A stretch of DNA of 64,000 nucleotides, taken from the NCBI GenBank assembly GCA_016932785.1, contig JAFGCJ010000002.1, positions 13,983 through 77,982 of the forward strand, read 5' to 3'. Positions 7,232-37,821 of this stretch are shown here, piece after piece. The position numbers and the translations under genes were made by a program. Position 1 is the first letter of the stretch. Each line of letters begins with the position of its first letter. The notes under the pieces were generated by a model. The model searched no databases, was not told where the DNA came from, and was given only the letters and a program-made list of their open reading frames with translations. Source of the stretch: Candidatus Dojkabacteria bacterium (GTDB lineage: Bacteria > Patescibacteriota > Dojkabacteria > SC72 > JAFGCJ01).

Positions 7232-7957
7232 TTGAAATCCCCTACTCAATCAGCTAGACTGTATCTAATGCAAACCAAGACCCAGAAAATAATCAAAATA
7301 GTCTTTAGATTCCTTTGTCTTGCTGTGTGGCTTGCGTTCTTTGTCATATTGGTGAAACCTGAGATCGCAAAGTACGCTATACCCAAACTAATAAACTTCA
7401 CCGAAACCTATGCTGAATCCAATAGCGGTATCGATCTAGATCCGATACTTGCATCAAGTCTTGATGATTATTCTGGTCCAAGTTCTTCACTTTATGCTAC
7501 TAAGTTTGGCGATAGCAGCAGCGGCATATATGGTGACCTTGTTACGTCTGACACCAGGGTTATCGCTTTAAATAGGTTCTTGGTCGATTATGGCTCTCCT
7601 ATGGCGCCGTATGCTGAGACTTTTGTTACTTCAGCAGAAGATGTCGGGTTAGATTGGAGGCTTGTTCCCGCAATATCGGGTGTTGAATCGGCTTTTGGAA
7701 GAATTATTCCTTATAACTCATATAATGCCTGGGGATGGCGGGGAGGTGCTTATGGCGCGTTTAGCGAATTTGGTTCGTGGGAAAATGGTATAGAACATGT
7801 TACAACAAGAATAGCAGTTGGTTATGGTACTGATATTGATGTGTTTACCATGGAGCCAATTTATTGTCCTCCATGCGGGCAAAATCCACAGCATGCCTGG
7901 GCGAATGGTGTTGCGAGATATATGGCTGAGATCTCTGAATATAGGAAAAACCTTTAG
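7232..7957 (+). CDS. Membrane-anchored lysozyme-like (glucosaminidase/SLT-like) putative peptidoglycan hydrolase, paralog A
   Basis: N-terminal TM helix. C-terminal ~120 aa block SPMAPYAETFVTSAEDVGLDWRLVPAISGVESAFG...YNAWGW carries an E-S catalytic-type motif. Clear paralog of the CDS at 24543-25166. Confidence 0.45.
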   Translation: MKSPTQSARLYLMQTKTQKIIKIVFRFLCLAVWLAFFVILVKPEIAKYAIPKLINFTETYAESNSGIDLDPILASSLDDYSGPSSSLYATKFGDSSSGIYGDLVTSDTRVIALNRFLVDYGSPMAPYAETFVTSAEDVGLDWRLVPAISGVESAFGRIIPYNSYNAWGWRGGAYGAFSEFGSWENGIEHVTTRIAVGYGTDIDVFTMEPIYCPPCGQNPQHAWANGVARYMAEISEYRKNL

Positions 7958-7978
7958 AATATGCTATAATTTAGGTAT

Positions 7979-30407: not shown

Positions 30408-30483
30408 GGGGCGCTAGCTCATCCGGTAGAGCAACTGGCTTTTAACCAGTAGGTGCGGGGTTCGAGTCCCCGGCGCCTCACCA
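30408..30483 (+). tRNA. tRNA-Lys (anticodon UUU)
   Basis: Manual fold: acceptor GGGGCGC/GCGCCTC, D arm GCTC-ATCCGGTA-GAGC, anticodon stem ACTGG/CCAGT with loop CTTTTAA (anticodon TTT), T arm CGGGG-TTCGAGT-CCCCG, discriminator A, encoded CCA. Coordinates are +/-1 nt. Confidence 0.85.
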
Positions 30484-30518
30484 CTTTTTATCGAGTTTTT
30501 TGGATTTTTCTGCTGTTA

Positions 30519-31322
30519 ATGTTATCTAAATATGCAATAAATAAGCAAAAGGGGAATATTGGAGAGGCATTTGTACAGTTTTTCTTATCTAGATTTGCGC
30601 TTGTTCATAAGGTGGATGGTGGAAATGATCTTGGTAATGATTTCTTCTGTGAACTATTTTTGGAGGAATATCCTACGAACATACTATTTTATGTACAGGT
30701 AAAGCTTTGGTGCTCTGAGCCTAGGGTTAAAGAATCTACAAAAGATTATTGGAGAAAGGCTCAGATACCTGTGTATTTATTCTGGGTGAAATGTGCAGGT
30801 AAAGAATTCGATGATATTGTTTTGGACGATGCTTTAGATGAAGCTTCATGGGTAGTTAAATATAAAAGAATGACAGCTGAGTTGCACAAAGAAAAGGCTG
30901 AAGGATTTGAAGATTTTGATTTGTTGAAATTTAAGAGAGATTTAATGATTGATTATGCTAGGTCGATGTTTATACGTGGTTTCACCCCTGTTTTTGATGC
31001 GGGAATGTTTTTCACAGAAAAGGAGAGAAGTAATCTTGACCTGGCTAGATTTCAAAATCCCGCGAGGAGCCTCATAAAGGAAGATCAATACGTAGAGACA
31101 GTACTTGATGAAAGCTGGTCTCATTTTATCTCTGTAGCACATTTGTTACATAGAATGTACAAAGAACTTAAGAAAGAAGAATATTTGAAAGGTGCTGAAG
31201 ACTGCATTAATCTTGCCGAAACATTATATGGAATATCTAATGTCACAGATGTTGATCATGTCTTGGCCTATTTATGGAGCGTAAAGAAAGAAATACGTAA
31301 TTCACGAAATCAGTTAGGTTAA
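30519..31322 (+). CDS. DUF4365-type PD-(D/E)xK nuclease-fold protein
   Basis: GNIGEAFVQFFLSRFALVHKVDGGNDLGNDFFCELF...ILFYVQVK reproduces the DUF4365 pattern (iGE...D.GxD...E...hVQVK, a restriction-endonuclease-like D/E-K core). The ORF-track GTG start at 30453 would overlap the tRNA-Lys 3' end, so the internal Met at about 30519 is preferred. Confidence 0.5.
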   Translation: MLSKYAINKQKGNIGEAFVQFFLSRFALVHKVDGGNDLGNDFFCELFLEEYPTNILFYVQVKLWCSEPRVKESTKDYWRKAQIPVYLFWVKCAGKEFDDIVLDDALDEASWVVKYKRMTAELHKEKAEGFEDFDLLKFKRDLMIDYARSMFIRGFTPVFDAGMFFTEKERSNLDLARFQNPARSLIKEDQYVETVLDESWSHFISVAHLLHRMYKELKKEEYLKGAEDCINLAETLYGISNVTDVDHVLAYLWSVKKEIRNSRNQLG

Positions 31323-31477
31323 AGGGTGCCTAATAAGTATTGATTGTCAATAATTTTCCTTGAAGCCAGATGAGAGAGCAATTCCTCACAGCAATGTTTA
31401 AAGCGATAGGCTGGGATATCAATAATGAACAAGGTTATGCAGAACAGTATAAAGAGGTTGTTCATGGAGACAAAGAG

Positions 31478-33049
31478 TTAATCCATATATTCTTTCAAAT
31501 ATTTTCTTAACCTCTTATCCACAACATACACATAAGTTCCACGAATGCCCCGTGTAAGCAATGTTTTGTAAATATTTTTAATGTAGCTTTCAAGCTCGTT
31601 CGGATCAGAAATAGCTCTTTTACCATTAAAATCAAGATATTTACTTTTGTCTATAACAATACTCTTTTTATCCTTGTCATATGAGATTTCCGGCCCAATA
31701 ATAACTCCAGCATAGTTAAGGTCATACCCCTGAATTGTATGGATGCAACCAACCTCATTTACGGCATTCTCTGAGTTGACCCAATCCTTTGTAACGCTGT
31801 TCCATCTTAACTTAACGTCGTCAATTTCTATATCGTAATCAATAGACTCATCTTTTTTGGTTTTCCATTCCCATGAGTACCCAGCTAATAGTCTTGAAAG
31901 TCCGATATTCTTGTCTTGTTCTTTTATGGCATCAACTAGTTCTCTTATATCGCCGAATAGCTTAAGTTCATATTCGTCGAATTTGACCTTCTCTTTCTGC
32001 TCGACATTGAGTATTCGTCTTATATATTCGATATAGTCCTGTCCGCCCCTCACTCTCATTTGGGAAATCAACGCGTATTCTTTCATCTTGTACTTTCTTA
32101 TATGGTGCTCCCTTATATCTGCTGGCTTAATGCTCTGATTTTTGTCGTAGAAAAGAACTTGATGTTTGGAGGAGTTAATAATCCAGTCTAGCTCAGTCCC
32201 CTCTTCTTTTTTGAGGCCTAAGGTTTTGTTTATCCTATCGAAGTCTCTGTAGTTAGTTAGGTTTACTCTTCTTTGTAATCTGTGCGCTTCATCAACAATT
32301 AATATGTCGTAATCGAATTTGATGACGTCGTTTGGTCCTATGACCATACCCGGATTTAATCCTTTTACTGATTTGAAGACTTTTTTTAGTGTTTTCCTTA
32401 GGGAAGTCATAGGAATTACCAAACCAATCCTGAGGTCTTGTGCCCAATCCTGTTCATATAGATATTTCATTAAGTATACCGCCACTATTGTCTTTCCGGT
32501 TCCTGGCTCTCCTGAAACAATACTGGTTTGGTGGCTGTCTTTTTTAATACTTTCCGTTATCTCCTGAACAACATTAAGCTGGTCTTCGCTAAGGCTTTTA
32601 TAGGGAGAATATTTAAACAAGTCACTATTTTCTATCTGAACAAGAGCTTGATTAGCCAGTTCTCTCTTTAGTAGTTCTTTCCATATAACTTCAAATTTTG
32701 CTTGATAACGTTCTCGGTCATAGTAGTCCGATTCTTTAACACCTGAATTACCGTTCTGGAGTAGATATTTGCCATCGCCGGACATGTATTTTATTAAGGA
32801 AGATTCAATGTCTAGAGTAGCCGATTTATTGTACTCGTCATCAGCAATTACATGTAAATTCTTCAGCCTTGCTCTTTCAGGATTTTCTATTTGTTGTTTT
32901 GCCCTATTATAAGCACTTACTGATTCTCCAACATATGCTTCTCTTCCATCTTCGATTATGTATACAATCGGCCAATTTAAGCCAAATCTGTAATCCTTAA
33001 TTTTCTGGATTGTGCTTGGAGTAAAACTGTATTTGGTTATCTCATACAT
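31478..33049 (-). CDS. GIY-YIG nuclease-like N-terminal domain fused to DUF2075 (Schlafen-helicase-like) P-loop NTPase
   Basis: N-terminal WPIVYIIEDGREAYVGESVSAYNRAKQ (GIY-YIG-like). Walker A IVSGEPGTGKT. Walker B/DEAH-like ILIVDEAHRL. The C-terminal region is typical of DUF2075 proteins. Confidence 0.6.
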   Translation of the reverse strand: MYEITKYSFTPSTIQKIKDYRFGLNWPIVYIIEDGREAYVGESVSAYNRAKQQIENPERARLKNLHVIADDEYNKSATLDIESSLIKYMSGDGKYLLQNGNSGVKESDYYDRERYQAKFEVIWKELLKRELANQALVQIENSDLFKYSPYKSLSEDQLNVVQEITESIKKDSHQTSIVSGEPGTGKTIVAVYLMKYLYEQDWAQDLRIGLVIPMTSLRKTLKKVFKSVKGLNPGMVIGPNDVIKFDYDILIVDEAHRLQRRVNLTNYRDFDRINKTLGLKKEEGTELDWIINSSKHQVLFYDKNQSIKPADIREHHIRKYKMKEYALISQMRVRGGQDYIEYIRRILNVEQKEKVKFDEYELKLFGDIRELVDAIKEQDKNIGLSRLLAGYSWEWKTKKDESIDYDIEIDDVKLRWNSVTKDWVNSENAVNEVGCIHTIQGYDLNYAGVIIGPEISYDKDKKSIVIDKSKYLDFNGKRAISDPNELESYIKNIYKTLLTRGIRGTYVYVVDKRLRKYLKEYMD

Positions 33050-33066
33050 AATTTTCGATCAGTTTT

Positions 33067-33423
33067 TTAGAGTTTTGTATATTTTTTGCTTGTTCCCTTA
33101 GCCTTCTCTACCGGGTATTTTTTGCTGTTTTGTTCGATTTTTTTTTGAACGATTTCGTCAATGTTAACATCGAGTGTTTCTGCTAGCAGTGCGATATATA
33201 TTAATATGTCGGCTAATTCCTCGATCACTTCTTTCTTGTCATACTTGGAGGTCCATTGAAAGCATTCTAGTAATTCTCCTGCCTCTATTGATATTGATTT
33301 GGCAAGATTTTCTTCTGAATGGAACTGTTTCCAATCTCTATCATCTCTAAATTTAATGAGTTTCTCTATGATTTCTCTTTTCATTAAAATTTCATTAAGA
33401 ATTGTTTTTTTTAATTCTAGCAT
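33067..33423 (-). CDS. MazG-like nucleoside triphosphate pyrophosphohydrolase
   Basis: EENLAKSISIEAGELLECFQW...EELADILIYIALLAETLDVNIDEIV carries the EExxE/D metal-binding helices of all-alpha NTP-PPase (MazG/HisE) proteins. 118 aa. Tail-to-head with the DUF2075 gene, 17 nt gap. Confidence 0.65.
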   Translation of the reverse strand: MLELKKTILNEILMKREIIEKLIKFRDDRDWKQFHSEENLAKSISIEAGELLECFQWTSKYDKKEVIEELADILIYIALLAETLDVNIDEIVQKKIEQNSKKYPVEKAKGTSKKYTKL

Positions 33424-33518
33424 AATGTGTGGGTTTACTAAACAAAGGAGATACAGTAATGAAGGTCTATCAGTTGTAATAGGTTAGCAAATATTCTCTC
33501 AACATGGTTCGATTTCTT

Positions 33519-33570
33519 TCCCCAGTTCCTACCCCTACCCCATCCCCACCCTCACCTCCGCTCCCCGCCC
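33519..33570. repeat. C-rich homopyrimidine tract; strong G-quadruplex motif on the minus strand
   Basis: Plus strand: CCCCAGTTCCTACCCCTACCCCATCCCCACCCTCACCTCCGCTCCCCGCCC. Minus strand: GGGCGGGGAGCGGAGGTGAGGGTGGGGATGGGGTAGGGGTAGG, with at least four G3-4 runs separated by 1-2 nt loops. Located in the divergent intergenic region between the MazG-like gene and the CDS at 33625. Confidence 0.6.
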
Positions 33571-33624
33571 AAATATTTTTCTATGCTACAATGAAGTTGT
33601 ACTAACCTAATCGCTTCACCCACC

Positions 33625-33939
33625 ATGAACAAAATCACTCTCGGTATTATCTGCGGACTAGCCTTTGGAATTCTCGATGTTCTCATAATGATCCCTATGC
33701 CTGAAAAAGATAAACGTAAAAAGACTGAAGCCATGATTGGAGCTTTCCTCGAGCGATTCATGGTCGGATTGATAATTCCGAATTTAAATCTCGGAACCGG
33801 ATACGTAGTTACTGGTATCATTGTTGGACTTGGGCTTAGTGTCCCTACTGCGGTTATTACTCGGGCTTATGCCCCTATCATCGGGATCGGCGTTGTTGGC
33901 GGTTTGATTATTGGGCTAATTTCTAATGCTGTAATATAA
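33625..33939 (+). CDS. Small glycine-zipper integral membrane protein
   Basis: 104 aa. Three hydrophobic segments rich in GxxxG (GIICGLAFGILDVLIMI; GIIVGLGLSV; GIGVVGGLIIGLI). Confidence 0.4.
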   Translation: MNKITLGIICGLAFGILDVLIMIPMPEKDKRKKTEAMIGAFLERFMVGLIIPNLNLGTGYVVTGIIVGLGLSVPTAVITRAYAPIIGIGVVGGLIIGLISNAVI

Positions 33940-33951
33940 CACGGTAATATA

Positions 33952-34209
33952 ATGCGGCAATATTCAAAGTTTACAGACAACAAGGATCCTGTAGTCGCTG
34001 TACTCCTTGATCGACTGTTTCAGGTTCTTGATGAAATCACGGGCGGTGAATATGAAGTGGAAGGTAAAAAACCTATCTCACTTATTGATGGAAAAGCTCT
34101 GGTGGATCGGACTCTAAATCATTTCTCGGAGATTGATACGAAGTATCAAAAGATAATTGGGGTTAAGGAGAAACAAGTAGCCATTGGTGACAAATTTGAA
34201 TTTGTATAG
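33952..34209 (+). CDS. Small hypothetical protein (85 aa)
   Basis: Compact ORF immediately after the membrane protein. No motif recognised. Confidence 0.3.
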   Translation: MRQYSKFTDNKDPVVAVLLDRLFQVLDEITGGEYEVEGKKPISLIDGKALVDRTLNHFSEIDTKYQKIIGVKEKQVAIGDKFEFV

Positions 34210-34235
34210 TACTCTAATTTAGTAGTATATAGATA

Positions 34236-34970
34236 GTGCAAAAATCTTACAAAAACCTAGCAAAATACTACGATCTCTGCTTTCAGCAAAAAGATTACCA
34301 GAAGGAGGTAGATTTCATATTGGAACTTGTTGATAAATATGGCATCAATAAAGAATCAATCCTAGATGTTGGTTGTGGGACCGGGACACATCTTTGCCTT
34401 CTGAAAAACCATTTTGACAATCTCTATGGCGTCGATTTAAACAAGGAAATTCTTGAAATCGCAAAAACCAAGGTTCCTGGCGCTCATTTTCTCAATGCAG
34501 GAATGTCCGACTTTAAGATTAAAGAGAAGTTTGATGTCATTACCTCTTTATATTCAGTTTTTAACTACAATAAAGATGTGGATTCTGCCACTAAGACGCT
34601 GCAGAATTTCCATAAGCACTTACAGGAAAAAGGAGTTGTAATAATTGCTCTGTATAACGAAAGAACTACTGATAAGAAAATTTCCCTTCATGTGGGTAAA
34701 GATGACGATACAAAAGTGGCAAAGATAGATCAGTTCAGGTATATACCTAAGGACAAAACTGTGAAATCCGAACATTTAGTTCTGATTAAAGACAATGAAG
34801 AGATAGATTTTGAAGTTGAGGATGATGATATTTATAGGATTTTTGATTTTGATGAAATAGAGAGTATGGTAAAGGAGTCAGGATTTTCGAATAGCGAGAT
34901 ATATGATAGGTTTTCGTTCGATAAAGCGGCAAATAAGTCTAAATTTCCTGTGTTGGTGTTAAGGAGGTGA
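34236..34970 (+). CDS. Class I SAM-dependent methyltransferase (TylM1/DesVI-like small-molecule N-methyltransferase family)
   Basis: YYDLCF...ILDVGCGTGTHLCLL (SAM motif I), GVDLNKEILEIAK, DVITSLYSVFNY. The overall layout matches sugar N,N-dimethyltransferase-like MTases. Confidence 0.6.
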   Translation: MQKSYKNLAKYYDLCFQQKDYQKEVDFILELVDKYGINKESILDVGCGTGTHLCLLKNHFDNLYGVDLNKEILEIAKTKVPGAHFLNAGMSDFKIKEKFDVITSLYSVFNYNKDVDSATKTLQNFHKHLQEKGVVIIALYNERTTDKKISLHVGKDDDTKVAKIDQFRYIPKDKTVKSEHLVLIKDNEEIDFEVEDDDIYRIFDFDEIESMVKESGFSNSEIYDRFSFDKAANKSKFPVLVLRR

Positions 34971-34979
34971 GTATGCACA

Positions 34980-35125
34980 TAACTCATCCCTCTCAAGATG
35001 TGTAATATCAAGGGCTTGGTTACAGAGGGCCCGTGCCTTTTGAGCAGTTATCCCTTTAAGTAGTTGTGAATATGGTAGTTGAAGATCAGCTATAGGTGAC
35101 GTGAATTAATTATATCATATGTAGC
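34980..35125 (-). pseudogene. Degenerate duplicate of the 5' end (first ~45 codons plus ~25 bp upstream) of the gene at 36876-37697
   Basis: About 88% nucleotide identity to 37560-37725 over ~145 bp. Start codon ATG is mutated to ACG. Reading frame is retained for ~45 codons (TSPIADLQLPYSQLLKGITAQKARALCNQALDITHLERDEL) before ending. Confidence 0.55.
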
Positions 35126-35316
35126 GAGTACATATTATAGGATAACAAAGTCTTTTGCTGATGGAAGTTCCTCTTTTGTGGTATAATGCACCAGTTCGAA
35201 ACAAAGTAGGACTTTTGTGAATTTGTTTGTCTCCCCTTCAGAGTAAATCTTAATTCCCAGGTAACTATTTTGGCATGACCGGAATTACCGGGAATTAAAT
35301 TCTACATAATAATACA

Positions 35317-36513
35317 GTGAGTAAATACAATTATAACCACAGAAATCGTGGATACAATGACTATGCAAAGCGAAACGGAAGACGTCGTGGGGGGCGTAAT
35401 AGCTTTCATGGGAGTAAGATTGATCCCAAAAAATATGTCTCAAGTGCTGAGGCTGGACCATCGTGCTCTATTTATCAGGATGACTGCAAATTTGAAGATT
35501 TCAACGTTGCTTCGGTGATCCAGTCGAATATCAGAGCTAAGAATTTCAGCCAACCGACAAAGATACAAGCCCAGGCAATTCCATATGTACTTTCCGGTAA
35601 GGATATTTTGGGATTAGCGGGAACTGGATCTGGTAAAACTGCGGCTTTTCTCGTTCCGATGATTGATAAGGCTCTCAAAGATCGTGGTCAGAAGATCTTG
35701 ATTGTCACTCCAACAAGAGAGCTTGCCGCCCAGATTAGAGATGAATTTGTTACTTTCTCAAAAGGAACGAATCTCAGGTCGGCCGTTGTTATCGGAGGTG
35801 CAAGTATGGGGAAACAAATTTCGGTATTGAAGCAAAACCCTCAGTTTGTTATTGCTACTCCTGGAAGATTGAAAGATCTTTCTCAAAGGGGGGTGATTCA
35901 TTTTGATGTATTTAACAATATTGTACTTGATGAGGTGGATAGGATGCTCGATATGGGTTTTGTCCATGAGATAAAGCAAGTTATTTCAAAATTGAGCCAA
36001 AACAAGCAGTCGATGTTTTTTTCAGCTACTATGAATCCTAAGATCGAGGAAATTGCCAGATCGTTACTTAGGGATCCTGTGAAAATTCAGGTTGAGAGGC
36101 TTTCTTTAAAGAGAAACGTGGAACAGAATGTCGTTAAAGTTAGACCAGAAGAGAAAATTGAGAAGCTCCATGATCTGCTGAATGGCGAAGATTTTCACAA
36201 AGTTCTGATCTTTTCGAGGACTAAATATGGCTCTGATAAACTTTCAAAGACGCTTTTAAAAAGAGGCTTTTGTGTAGATTCGATACATGGTGGCAAAACA
36301 CAGTCAAGAAGAGAAAGAGTAATACGTAAGTTTCGTCAGGATGAGATTAAGATTCTCGTTGCAACAGATGTTGCTGCAAGAGGATTGGATATTGACGATA
36401 TTACCCATGTTATAAACTACGACGAGCCGAATTGTTATGATGACTATATTCACAGGATCGGCCGTACTGGCAGAGCCGGGAAAAAAGGTAACGCGCTCAC
36501 ATTTGTTGGGTAG
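35317..36513 (+). CDS. DEAD-box ATP-dependent RNA helicase (motif II variant DEVD)
   Basis: Q motif, Walker A AGTGSGKT, PTRELA, VLDEVDRMLDMGF, SAT, HRIGRTGRAG. R/G-rich N-terminus. Confidence 0.8.
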   Translation: MSKYNYNHRNRGYNDYAKRNGRRRGGRNSFHGSKIDPKKYVSSAEAGPSCSIYQDDCKFEDFNVASVIQSNIRAKNFSQPTKIQAQAIPYVLSGKDILGLAGTGSGKTAAFLVPMIDKALKDRGQKILIVTPTRELAAQIRDEFVTFSKGTNLRSAVVIGGASMGKQISVLKQNPQFVIATPGRLKDLSQRGVIHFDVFNNIVLDEVDRMLDMGFVHEIKQVISKLSQNKQSMFFSATMNPKIEEIARSLLRDPVKIQVERLSLKRNVEQNVVKVRPEEKIEKLHDLLNGEDFHKVLIFSRTKYGSDKLSKTLLKRGFCVDSIHGGKTQSRRERVIRKFRQDEIKILVATDVAARGLDIDDITHVINYDEPNCYDDYIHRIGRTGRAGKKGNALTFVG

Positions 36514-36875: not shown

Positions 36876-37697
36876 CTATTCAAACTCTCTCTCATAGGGT
36901 CTATTTTGCCTGATCCAGACTTCGGCCTCTCCGTCTCTGGTCAGGGGATCCTCGTTTAGAACAGCTTCAGCTGTAAGAGCGAGGTAATCCCTTACTCCCT
37001 CCGGCAGTACTTCACCTTCTGTTCGACAATCAAATTCCACTGAAAAATCTGCGTCAGCATCAAGAGTTGTAATGACTTCTGTTTTAATGCCGTCAATAGG
37101 AATTCCCAGTATTTTAGAAAATCTTGTTGCTACCTCTGTAGTGACGCGTTGAAATTGTTCGGTTTCTTTCTGTGATTCAGTCATATGTTCTGGACTAGAA
37201 ATTTCTCCGCTTAATAAATGAGCATTTGGAGAGAGAAAAAGTCTGATCTGGGGATTTCTTACTGCTGAGCCCCATCTACGCATTTCATCTTCTGTGAGTG
37301 TAGGAACTGGGTCTGGTGCGTCTTTTCTCCTTAGCATCCAAGCGGTTTCATCCCATACTCTAATGACGGTTCCTAGACCTGGGATTCCAGATTCCTTACA
37401 TAATTCCTGTATTTGTGTCCCAGCTGCGCTGATTTGTTCTTCGTTGGGACGAAAATCAACTCCTTCTTCATAAGTTCCGACACCCGCGGTTAGTTCTATT
37501 GCAAGAACTGTTCCGTCAGTTGCCTCTTTAGCTCCTTTCCCGACTCGTACCTCTCGATCATCTGGATCTAGCGTGTCTATTCCTAGCTCACGATGAGTTA
37601 TATCCAGGGCTTGGTCGCAGAGGGCCCGTGCCTGTTGTGGAGTTACCCCTTTAGGGAGTTGTGAATCTGGTAGTTGAAGATCAGCTATAGGTGACAT
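36876..37697 (-). CDS. Hypothetical protein (273 aa), locally GC-rich (about 47%)
   Basis: No recognisable motif. Codon usage is distinctly G/C-richer than surrounding genes. Its 5' end is duplicated as the pseudogene at 34980-35125. Confidence 0.45.
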   Translation of the reverse strand: MSPIADLQLPDSQLPKGVTPQQARALCDQALDITHRELGIDTLDPDDREVRVGKGAKEATDGTVLAIELTAGVGTYEEGVDFRPNEEQISAAGTQIQELCKESGIPGLGTVIRVWDETAWMLRRKDAPDPVPTLTEDEMRRWGSAVRNPQIRLFLSPNAHLLSGEISSPEHMTESQKETEQFQRVTTEVATRFSKILGIPIDGIKTEVITTLDADADFSVEFDCRTEGEVLPEGVRDYLALTAEAVLNEDPLTRDGEAEVWIRQNRPYEREFE

Positions 37698-37821
37698 GGT
37701 GCAATTATATCATAGGAGATAGAGTTTATGTTATGGGATAGTAGGGTTTTGGTTTGCGTGGGTTTGTCTTGTGGGGCGTGGCTGGTGTGTTGTAATTTTG
37801 CTTTCCACTATTTCGTATGTC

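Follow-up and report, generated by a model that had tools for sequence, protein, structure and literature searches.

In the window, that is, the whole 64-kb stretch of Candidatus Dojkabacteria DNA that was analysed, a short C-rich tract (33519..33570) lies in the intergenic region 33385-33624, between two genes that are read away from each other. To its left, on the minus strand, lies a gene for a MazG-like nucleotide pyrophosphohydrolase (33067..33384), followed on the same strand by a gene for a SLFN-group-3 (DUF2075-type) SF1 helicase (31478..33049), its conserved operon partner. To its right, on the plus strand, lies a gene for a 104-aa membrane protein with four helices (33625..33939). 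The exact flanking proteins were found in one NCBI MAG (Candidatus Dojkabacteria bacterium, JW710_00875, on a contig of 598,548 bp) and on one Logan contig. The host genome has a GC content of 40% and is 89% coding.

The start of the MazG-like gene was set to 33384, because NCBI annotates a protein of 105 aa and all homologues have a length of 104-106 aa. The longest open reading frame (33067-33423, 118 aa) was rejected as over-extended, and its extra 39 nt contain the gene's own promoter box, TGCTAGAAT. A sequence-only reading of the locus had placed the tract about 95 bp upstream of the MazG start, which assumed this longest frame with its start at 33423; counted from 33384, the distance is about 135 nt. 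The distance of 55 nt to the coding sequence on the plus strand, given in the same reading, was correct. A comparison of the loci L115-L123 identified the MazG-like gene (105 aa), followed after 5-17 nt by the SLFN-group-3/DUF2075 SF1 helicase gene (523-524 aa), as a conserved module that occurs in several unrelated contexts. MazG-like relatives carry a TGGTAAAAT box at a similar distance from the gene. The helicase also gave weak PADLOC matches to Nhi, AbiO, and PDC-S41, and the two genes could be a defence-type pair.

For the membrane protein, no family model was found in Pfam, NCBIfam, or PADLOC, and no sequence match in the PDB. Its AlphaFold model is confident (pLDDT 88), and a Foldseek search of this model against the PDB yielded no significant match. 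The protein is widespread in Bacteria and Archaea: homologues with 46-73% identity were found in MAGs of many bacterial and archaeal phyla, and closer relatives with up to 89% identity are located on metagenome contigs (family loci L003-L076 and L107-L114). Invariant residues include D18, E35, R44, P52, R80, Y82, and P84. The gene is usually solitary and often lies beside tRNA genes or defence and toxin genes (HEPN, MmeI-type, DUF5655, AbiEii, ParE), and it was absent from the viral contigs and phage records searched. As judged from these sequence comparisons, the membrane protein is a member of a widely transferred family to which no function has been assigned.

The tract and the genes on both sides of it lie in a mosaic segment of about 4.5 kb (30484-34991). 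On the left, this segment is bounded by tRNA-Lys(UUU) (30408..30483, plus strand), which forms the left flank together with genes for ribosomal protein L19, RNase HII, and a UPF0102-family protein. The candidate right boundary is an orphan degenerate copy of the promoter and 5' end of a 273-aa gene (34992..35119, minus strand), with 86% identity and ACG for ATG. The orphan belongs to a 128-nt direct repeat (86% identity) with copies at 34992-35119 and 37587-37714, of which the right one consists of the extended -10 promoter of the 273-aa gene (minus strand, 36876-37697) together with the first ~37 codons of this gene. Its left counterpart comes directly after a methyltransferase gene and is probably where a ~4.5-kb insertion adjoining tRNA-Lys ends on the right. 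Between the two boundaries are found a weak DUF4365-like ORF, the helicase/MazG-like pair, the tract, the membrane gene, an 85-aa ORF, and a gene for a SAM-dependent methyltransferase. The earlier proposal of an island at this place is thus supported by the tRNA-Lys on one side and the orphan 128-nt gene-start copy on the other, and the idea is made reasonable by the location of membrane-gene homologues beside tRNA genes and defence or toxin genes. In its longest version (289 aa), the ORF that immediately follows tRNA-Lys (30453-31322) shares about 30 nt with the 3' end of the tRNA; gene callers make it 267 aa long. It has weak DUF4365 and Aga-REase-like matches and may be a nuclease-like island gene.

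Promoters are predicted here from motifs, not from mapped TSS. Intergenic sequence of the window contains the extended -10 motif TGNTANAAT at 0.91/kb, genic sequence at 0.07/kb (13-fold enrichment), and most of the intergenic copies end 7-33 nt 5' of a start codon. An SD-like 4-mer was present at 9 of the 69 genes obtained by crude gene calls in the window. Because of the intergenic enrichment of TGNTANAAT, its short distance to start codons and the small number of SD-like motifs, the genome appears to rely on extended -10 promoters without -35 boxes and on leaderless or short-leader mRNAs. A generic sigma-70 and terminator scan was uninformative, since the promoters of this genome appear to lack -35 boxes. 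Frequently, TGNTANAAT ends just 7-14 nt before the start codon, as seen at 7962, 8348, 37712, 58730, 63336, and 63940. An extended -10 box, TGGTATAAT, at 35179 precedes the gene for a DEAD-box helicase (35317-36513) by about 130 nt; the leader of this gene is unusually long for this genome and typical of cold-shock-type DEAD-box genes.

The predicted promoter of the membrane gene is the extended -10 box TGCTACAAT (33584..33592, plus strand), which ends 32 nt 5' of the ATG at 33625. No match to a -35 box was found for this promoter; the sequence at 17-nt spacing is CCCGCC and lies within the tract. The predicted promoter of the MazG-like/helicase operon is the box TGCTAGAAT (33414..33422, minus strand), which ends 29 nt 5' of the ATG at 33384. 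A weak extended -10-like box, TGAGAGAAT (33493..33501, minus strand), 17 nt from the left end of the tract, might be a second leftward promoter at low confidence. The two extended -10 boxes are divergent and enclose the tract: the box on the plus strand is 13 nt away from it, the one on the minus strand about 97 nt. Neither predicted promoter transcribes the tract, as both predicted TSS lie outside. Assuming a TSS near 33599, the tract occupies the membrane-gene promoter from about -30 to -80, and a positional relation to a promoter, which the sequence-only reading had proposed, is thus present. Of the divergent-promoter placement proposed there, the location between two divergent boxes was confirmed, but an element shared with the MazG-like gene was overstated, because the tract is more than 95 nt away from the MazG-like -10 box and is positioned in the promoter of the membrane gene.

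Of the 52 nt of the tract, 34 are C (65%), 9 are T, 6 are A, and 3 are G (6%) on the plus strand. Its G+C content is 71%, and the spacer around it is AT-rich. The sequence that had been quoted for it was recovered at 33519/33520-33570, and an identical tract is contained in the independent Logan assembly of SRR13394437. Its description as a homopyrimidine C-rich run was right with regard to C-richness but not in the strict sense, as 83% of the bases are pyrimidines. Seven C-runs of 3-4 begin at 33520, 33532, 33538, 33544, 33549, 33563, and 33568, with a run-to-run spacing of 12, 6, 6, 5, 14, and 5 nt and a longest run of 4. A perfect 18-nt mirror repeat, ACCCCTACCCCATCCCCA (33531..33548), lies inside the tract, a possible H-DNA sequence that is broken by A/T.

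On the minus strand, the tract is G-rich and contains the core G4 motif GGGTGGGGATGGGGTAGGGG (33532..33551), with loops of 1, 2, and 2 nt. This agrees with the earlier claim of at least four G-tracts with 1-2 nt loops and with the canonical PQS definition of at least four runs of at least 3 G and loops of 1-7 nt. The complement on the plus strand, CCCCTACCCCATCCCCACCC (33532-33551), has four C-runs of at least 3 with short loops and is therefore an i-motif candidate by sequence. This core is the sole canonical (G/C>=3, N1-7)x4 motif on both strands of the 64-kb window. I-motif stability near neutral pH usually requires C-runs of at least 5, and C4 runs are usually unstable there, so that the tract with its longest C-run of 4 falls short in this respect.

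G4Hunter, which had been suggested as a check, scored the whole tract at -2.10 and the core at -2.85, and the best 25-nt window reached -2.48. Scores of at least 1.5 are classed as high and scores of at least 2.0 as 'very likely', and the tract belongs to both classes. The second-ranking site in the 64-kb window reached |1.72| and lies in coding sequence. In ViennaRNA, the MFE of the G-rich strand was -27.96 kcal/mol with G-quadruplex energies versus -1.6 without them (RNA parameters). The G4 and i-motif potential of the tract is thus high by computation. A minimal PQS also occurred in 49 of 300 dinucleotide-preserving shuffles and is therefore by itself unremarkable; |G4Hunter| values of at least 2.48 were reached in only one of the 300, and 7 runs or 34 of one base per 52 nt in none of them (shuffle maxima 6 and 30). 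Among unrelated loci amounting to about 400 kb, five 25-nt windows had a G4Hunter value of at least 2.0, with a maximum not above 2.36. The tract is real and beyond chance, and its composition is extreme. In a survey of 1,627 bacterial genomes with G4Hunter, just 86 sites had scores of at least 2.0 (PMC6539912).

The short units of the tract recur at -30 to -80 of a -35-less promoter that could need an activator. It was therefore considered whether repeated CCCC(T/A)(A/T) units form an operator that binds a C-/G-rich-strand protein or a transcription factor controlling the membrane gene. Among the 15 extended -10 promoters in the window, the membrane-gene promoter has the most C-rich upstream region (46% C and 7% G in 90 nt), and the runner-up, which lies on the minus strand at 37712, is also C-rich and G-poor upstream (39% C and 6% G). 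However, the two C-rich upstream regions have no clear common motif, the run spacing of the tract lacks helical periodicity, dyad symmetry is missing, and there is no adjacent regulator gene, which makes an operator of this kind unlikely. In 37713-37802, upstream of the promoter of the 273-aa gene, the sense strand is C-rich, G-poor, and CA-rich and is not G4-capable; this promoter is the sole other case of C-over-G upstream skew in the window.

Further copies of the tract were searched for in the window and beyond. With up to 3 mismatches, no second copy was found in the 64-kb window, and the best other Smith-Waterman alignments on both of its strands were at shuffle level. Viral contigs gave 0 matches to the tract, and metagenomes gave 0 matches to a flank-anchored pattern that was able to catch length alleles. 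Exact matches to the core 20-mer were present in 30 metagenome contigs, in which the flanks are unrelated and mostly GC-rich or eukaryote-like. With a single copy in the window and unrelated flanks in the metagenome matches, a dispersed repeat or the end of a mobile element was rejected. A low computed G4 score and a common dispersed repeat unrelated to promoters had been named as findings against the sequence-only reading; neither was obtained. A G-rich look-alike at 7731 was discarded as coding sequence (WGWRGGAYG).

The homologous loci gave a uniform result. None of 70 membrane-gene loci in genomes has a comparable upstream tract, and the same was found for about 12 further contigs with close relatives of the membrane protein (72-89% identity), including P0002, P0003, P0004, P0006, P0017, P0018, and P0025. 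Similarly, the tract was absent from all eight MazG-like loci, the nearest relatives of which are just 66-68% identical. Thus, none of about 90 homologous loci of both flanking genes carries such a tract, which provides no evidence of selection. The closest relative (L073), with an 89% identical membrane protein, has a different upstream gene. Its upstream region contains a pyrimidine-rich, T-rich block followed by TGGTACAAT 28 nt 5' of the ATG, and has no C-runs of 4. The similarity of this region to the window reached a local score of 18 compared with 16-20 for unrelated loci, which is at noise level. A co-inherited leader of ~155 nt common to L073 and the window was rejected on these grounds, and because the score is no better than for unrelated loci, homology is not claimed. 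Judged by these comparisons, the tract is lineage-specific, a one-off without detectable evolutionary conservation.

The lack of conservation speaks for a neutral junction remnant, an explanation that has a substantial chance of being correct and is nearly as likely as the DNA-level promoter element discussed below. The tract would then be a functionless, cryptically simple sequence at the seam of two mobile modules with incidental G4 potential, and would have originated from decayed CCCCTA/CCCCAT/CCCCAC hexamer-like units by slippage or import of foreign DNA. It is missing from every homologous locus of both flanking genes, and these are independently mobile, as the MazG-like/helicase pair occurs elsewhere and the membrane gene is found alone in many contexts, often near tRNA. 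With two independently mobile modules at its sides, the tract lies at their seam, in an island with tRNA-Lys at one end and an orphan gene fragment at the other. A quasi-6-nt register (CCCCAG TTCCTA CCCCTA CCCCAT CCCCAC CCTCAC) can be read in the tract, and the T-rich pyrimidine block of L073 resembles a C-to-T decayed counterpart. On the other hand, down to a score of 30 no tandem array was detected by TRF, and a tract with 65% C would be expected to decay fast in a 40%-GC, 89%-coding genome. Intact C4 runs would therefore imply either a recent origin or selection. Moreover, the placement exactly between -10 boxes (13 and 17 nt to the nearest) is tidy for a scar.

Simple repeats in promoters are known from phase-variable genes of Neisseria and Haemophilus, in which poly-C/poly-G or short tandem repeats lie between -35 and -10. 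Like these, the tract is low-complexity, C/G-rich promoter DNA of a membrane-protein gene in a variable genomic context; unlike these, it is not homopolymeric and does not form a perfect tandem array. As TRF with a minimum score of 30 detected no array in the tract, slipped-strand length switching is not expected there, and a phase-variable simple repeat was rejected, the hexamer units also being imperfect.

A function at the RNA level was considered as well. A comparison with Rfam gave no match at gathering thresholds, and none for the region 33380-33660 when E<=1 was allowed. As RNA, the C-rich strand would be unstructured (z = -0.86), with the tract unpaired in the MFE and centroid folds, and a known structured RNA was rejected on the basis of the null result in Rfam and the unremarkable fold. 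In the frame of a 33-codon ORF, MVRFLSPVPTPTPSPPSPPLPAQ... (33504..33605, plus strand), the tract would be translated into Pro, Thr, and Ser (...PVPTPTPSPPSPPLP...), including polyproline motifs of the stalling type. As a coding sequence or leader peptide, this ORF was rejected: it has no SD, contains the -10 box, was not called by gene finders, and is not conserved in L073. It is probably non-coding.

C-rich, G-poor RNA is typical of rut sites, and Pro-rich leader ORFs are known from the Salmonella mgtA/mgtCBR and corA leaders. By analogy, the tract might belong to a C-rich leader transcribed from a weak upstream promoter or by read-through antisense to the MazG operon. Its plus strand would load Rho in a rut-like manner and attenuate or insulate transcription of the membrane gene, maybe coupled to translation of the 33-codon Pro-rich ORF. 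Like rut sites and the Salmonella leaders, the tract is C-rich, G-poor, unstructured, readable in Pro codons, and located upstream of a membrane-protein gene. Its plus strand (65% C and 6% G over 52 nt, unpaired as RNA) has the composition expected of a rut site, and the polyproline motifs of the ORF at 33504-33605 could serve for stalling. A non-extended -10-like CATAAT is present at 33421-33426. However, this sole candidate is weak, as it has neither a TG extension nor a properly spaced -35, and the tract is followed by the strong extended -10 box, which is located within the ORF. As the best promoter is downstream, the tract is probably outside the mRNA. In addition, the ORF lacks an SD and was passed over by gene finders, its protein is not conserved in L073 and thus differs from the known leaders, and typical rut sites are longer than 52 nt. 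Because of the missing Rfam match, the unstructured RNA and the location of both predicted TSS outside the tract, readings at the RNA level are disfavoured, and a transcribed leader is improbable.

The island is mosaic and apparently recombinogenic, and the tract in it precedes a gene for a surface or membrane protein. This brings to mind the recombination initiator of pilE, and the core GGGTGGGGATGGGGTAGGGG resembles the short-loop pilE G4. A quadruplex of this type would nucleate nicking and recombination and lead to cassette exchange or rearrangement of the island. The G4 of Neisseria gonorrhoeae pilE with the gar sRNA is likewise a short-loop G4 in gene-free DNA upstream of a surface-protein gene and in opposite orientation (PMC3547852; PMC13463697). 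The pilE system depends on an adjacent promoter from which a cis RNA is initiated inside the G-rich sequence, the G-rich strand being the non-template strand (PMC3547852). In contrast to pilE, a motif scan found no convincing promoter within or into the G-rich strand of the tract: near the tract, the minus strand holds just the weak, non-extended -10-like hexamers TAGCAT, AAAAAT, and AATATT, and both good extended -10 boxes point away from it at the level of motifs. Furthermore, within 64 kb neither the membrane gene nor the tract was seen to have silent or donor copies. An initiator of the pilE type is therefore hardly to be expected.

The best explanation, although a tentative one, sees in the tract a DNA element that is specific to this lineage, is not transcribed, and makes up the upstream part of the membrane-gene promoter, where it would have a putative G4-based effect on polymerase access. 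It builds on the observed position, uniqueness, composition, and computed G4 potential of the tract and on the promoter type of the genome; from these, we infer that any effect of the tract would be exerted at the level of DNA. Divergent promoters build up negative supercoiling between them, as described by the twin-domain model. The duplex might thus be opened by negative supercoiling between the two divergently firing promoters, or by replication. In the opened duplex, the G-rich strand, which is the nominal template strand of the membrane gene, could adopt a short-loop quadruplex of very high stability, with G-runs to spare, and the C-rich sense strand could form a weaker i-motif. Folding would alter the access of RNA polymerase to a -35-less promoter that depends on the extended -10 box alone. 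The -35 position of the membrane-gene promoter, which falls within the tract at CCCGCC, supports such an effect.

Several points argue against this promoter element. Owing to its 71% G+C, the tract is harder to melt than any other part of the AT-rich spacer, and supercoiling would therefore open the flanks first. As no predicted promoter transcribes the tract, the R-loop route to a G4, as in pilE, is not available, and nothing was seen that opens the duplex. In addition, the tract is not conserved in relatives, and its C-runs are just 4 long. A regulatory role of the tract is plausible on the basis of its sequence and position. For the structural switch or recombination hotspot proposed in the sequence-only reading, the compared loci offer no support. 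A working non-B-DNA element, in the sense of a quadruplex that is triggered by supercoiling or replication and gates the -35-less promoter, or of a pilE-like initiator that reshuffles the modules of the tRNA-Lys island, is very unlikely. If true, it would be the first to be described in CPR/Patescibacteria; in the literature, no paper was found that combines Patescibacteria and G-quadruplex.

Promoter-proximal PQS in bacteria have been surveyed with G4Hunter (Bartas et al. 2019, PMC6539912), and examples cited there include a G4 upstream of nasT in Paracoccus denitrificans and promoter G4s in Mycobacterium tuberculosis. Like the surveyed sequences, the tract has at least four short-loop G-runs near a promoter, belongs to the rarest G4Hunter class (>=2.0), and was identified by computation. 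Unlike them, it is found in a reduced-genome CPR bacterium with 40% GC and is not conserved in any relative. It also differs in that it lies upstream of the transcribed region, with the G-runs on the nominal template strand, and is known from sequence alone. The tract is thus a further case of a known type of feature, the promoter-proximal putative G4, with an extreme score for a 40%-GC genome.

At present, the value of these results is mostly corrective and contextual: the start of the MazG-like gene was fixed, the promoters were located, the island was delimited, and the tract was recognised as a one-off. If the tract were functional, it would be the first G4-based control found for Patescibacteria, organisms with reduced genomes and an apparent dependence on extended -10 promoters, and would provide a simple, testable case of a quadruplex in place of a -35/UP region.
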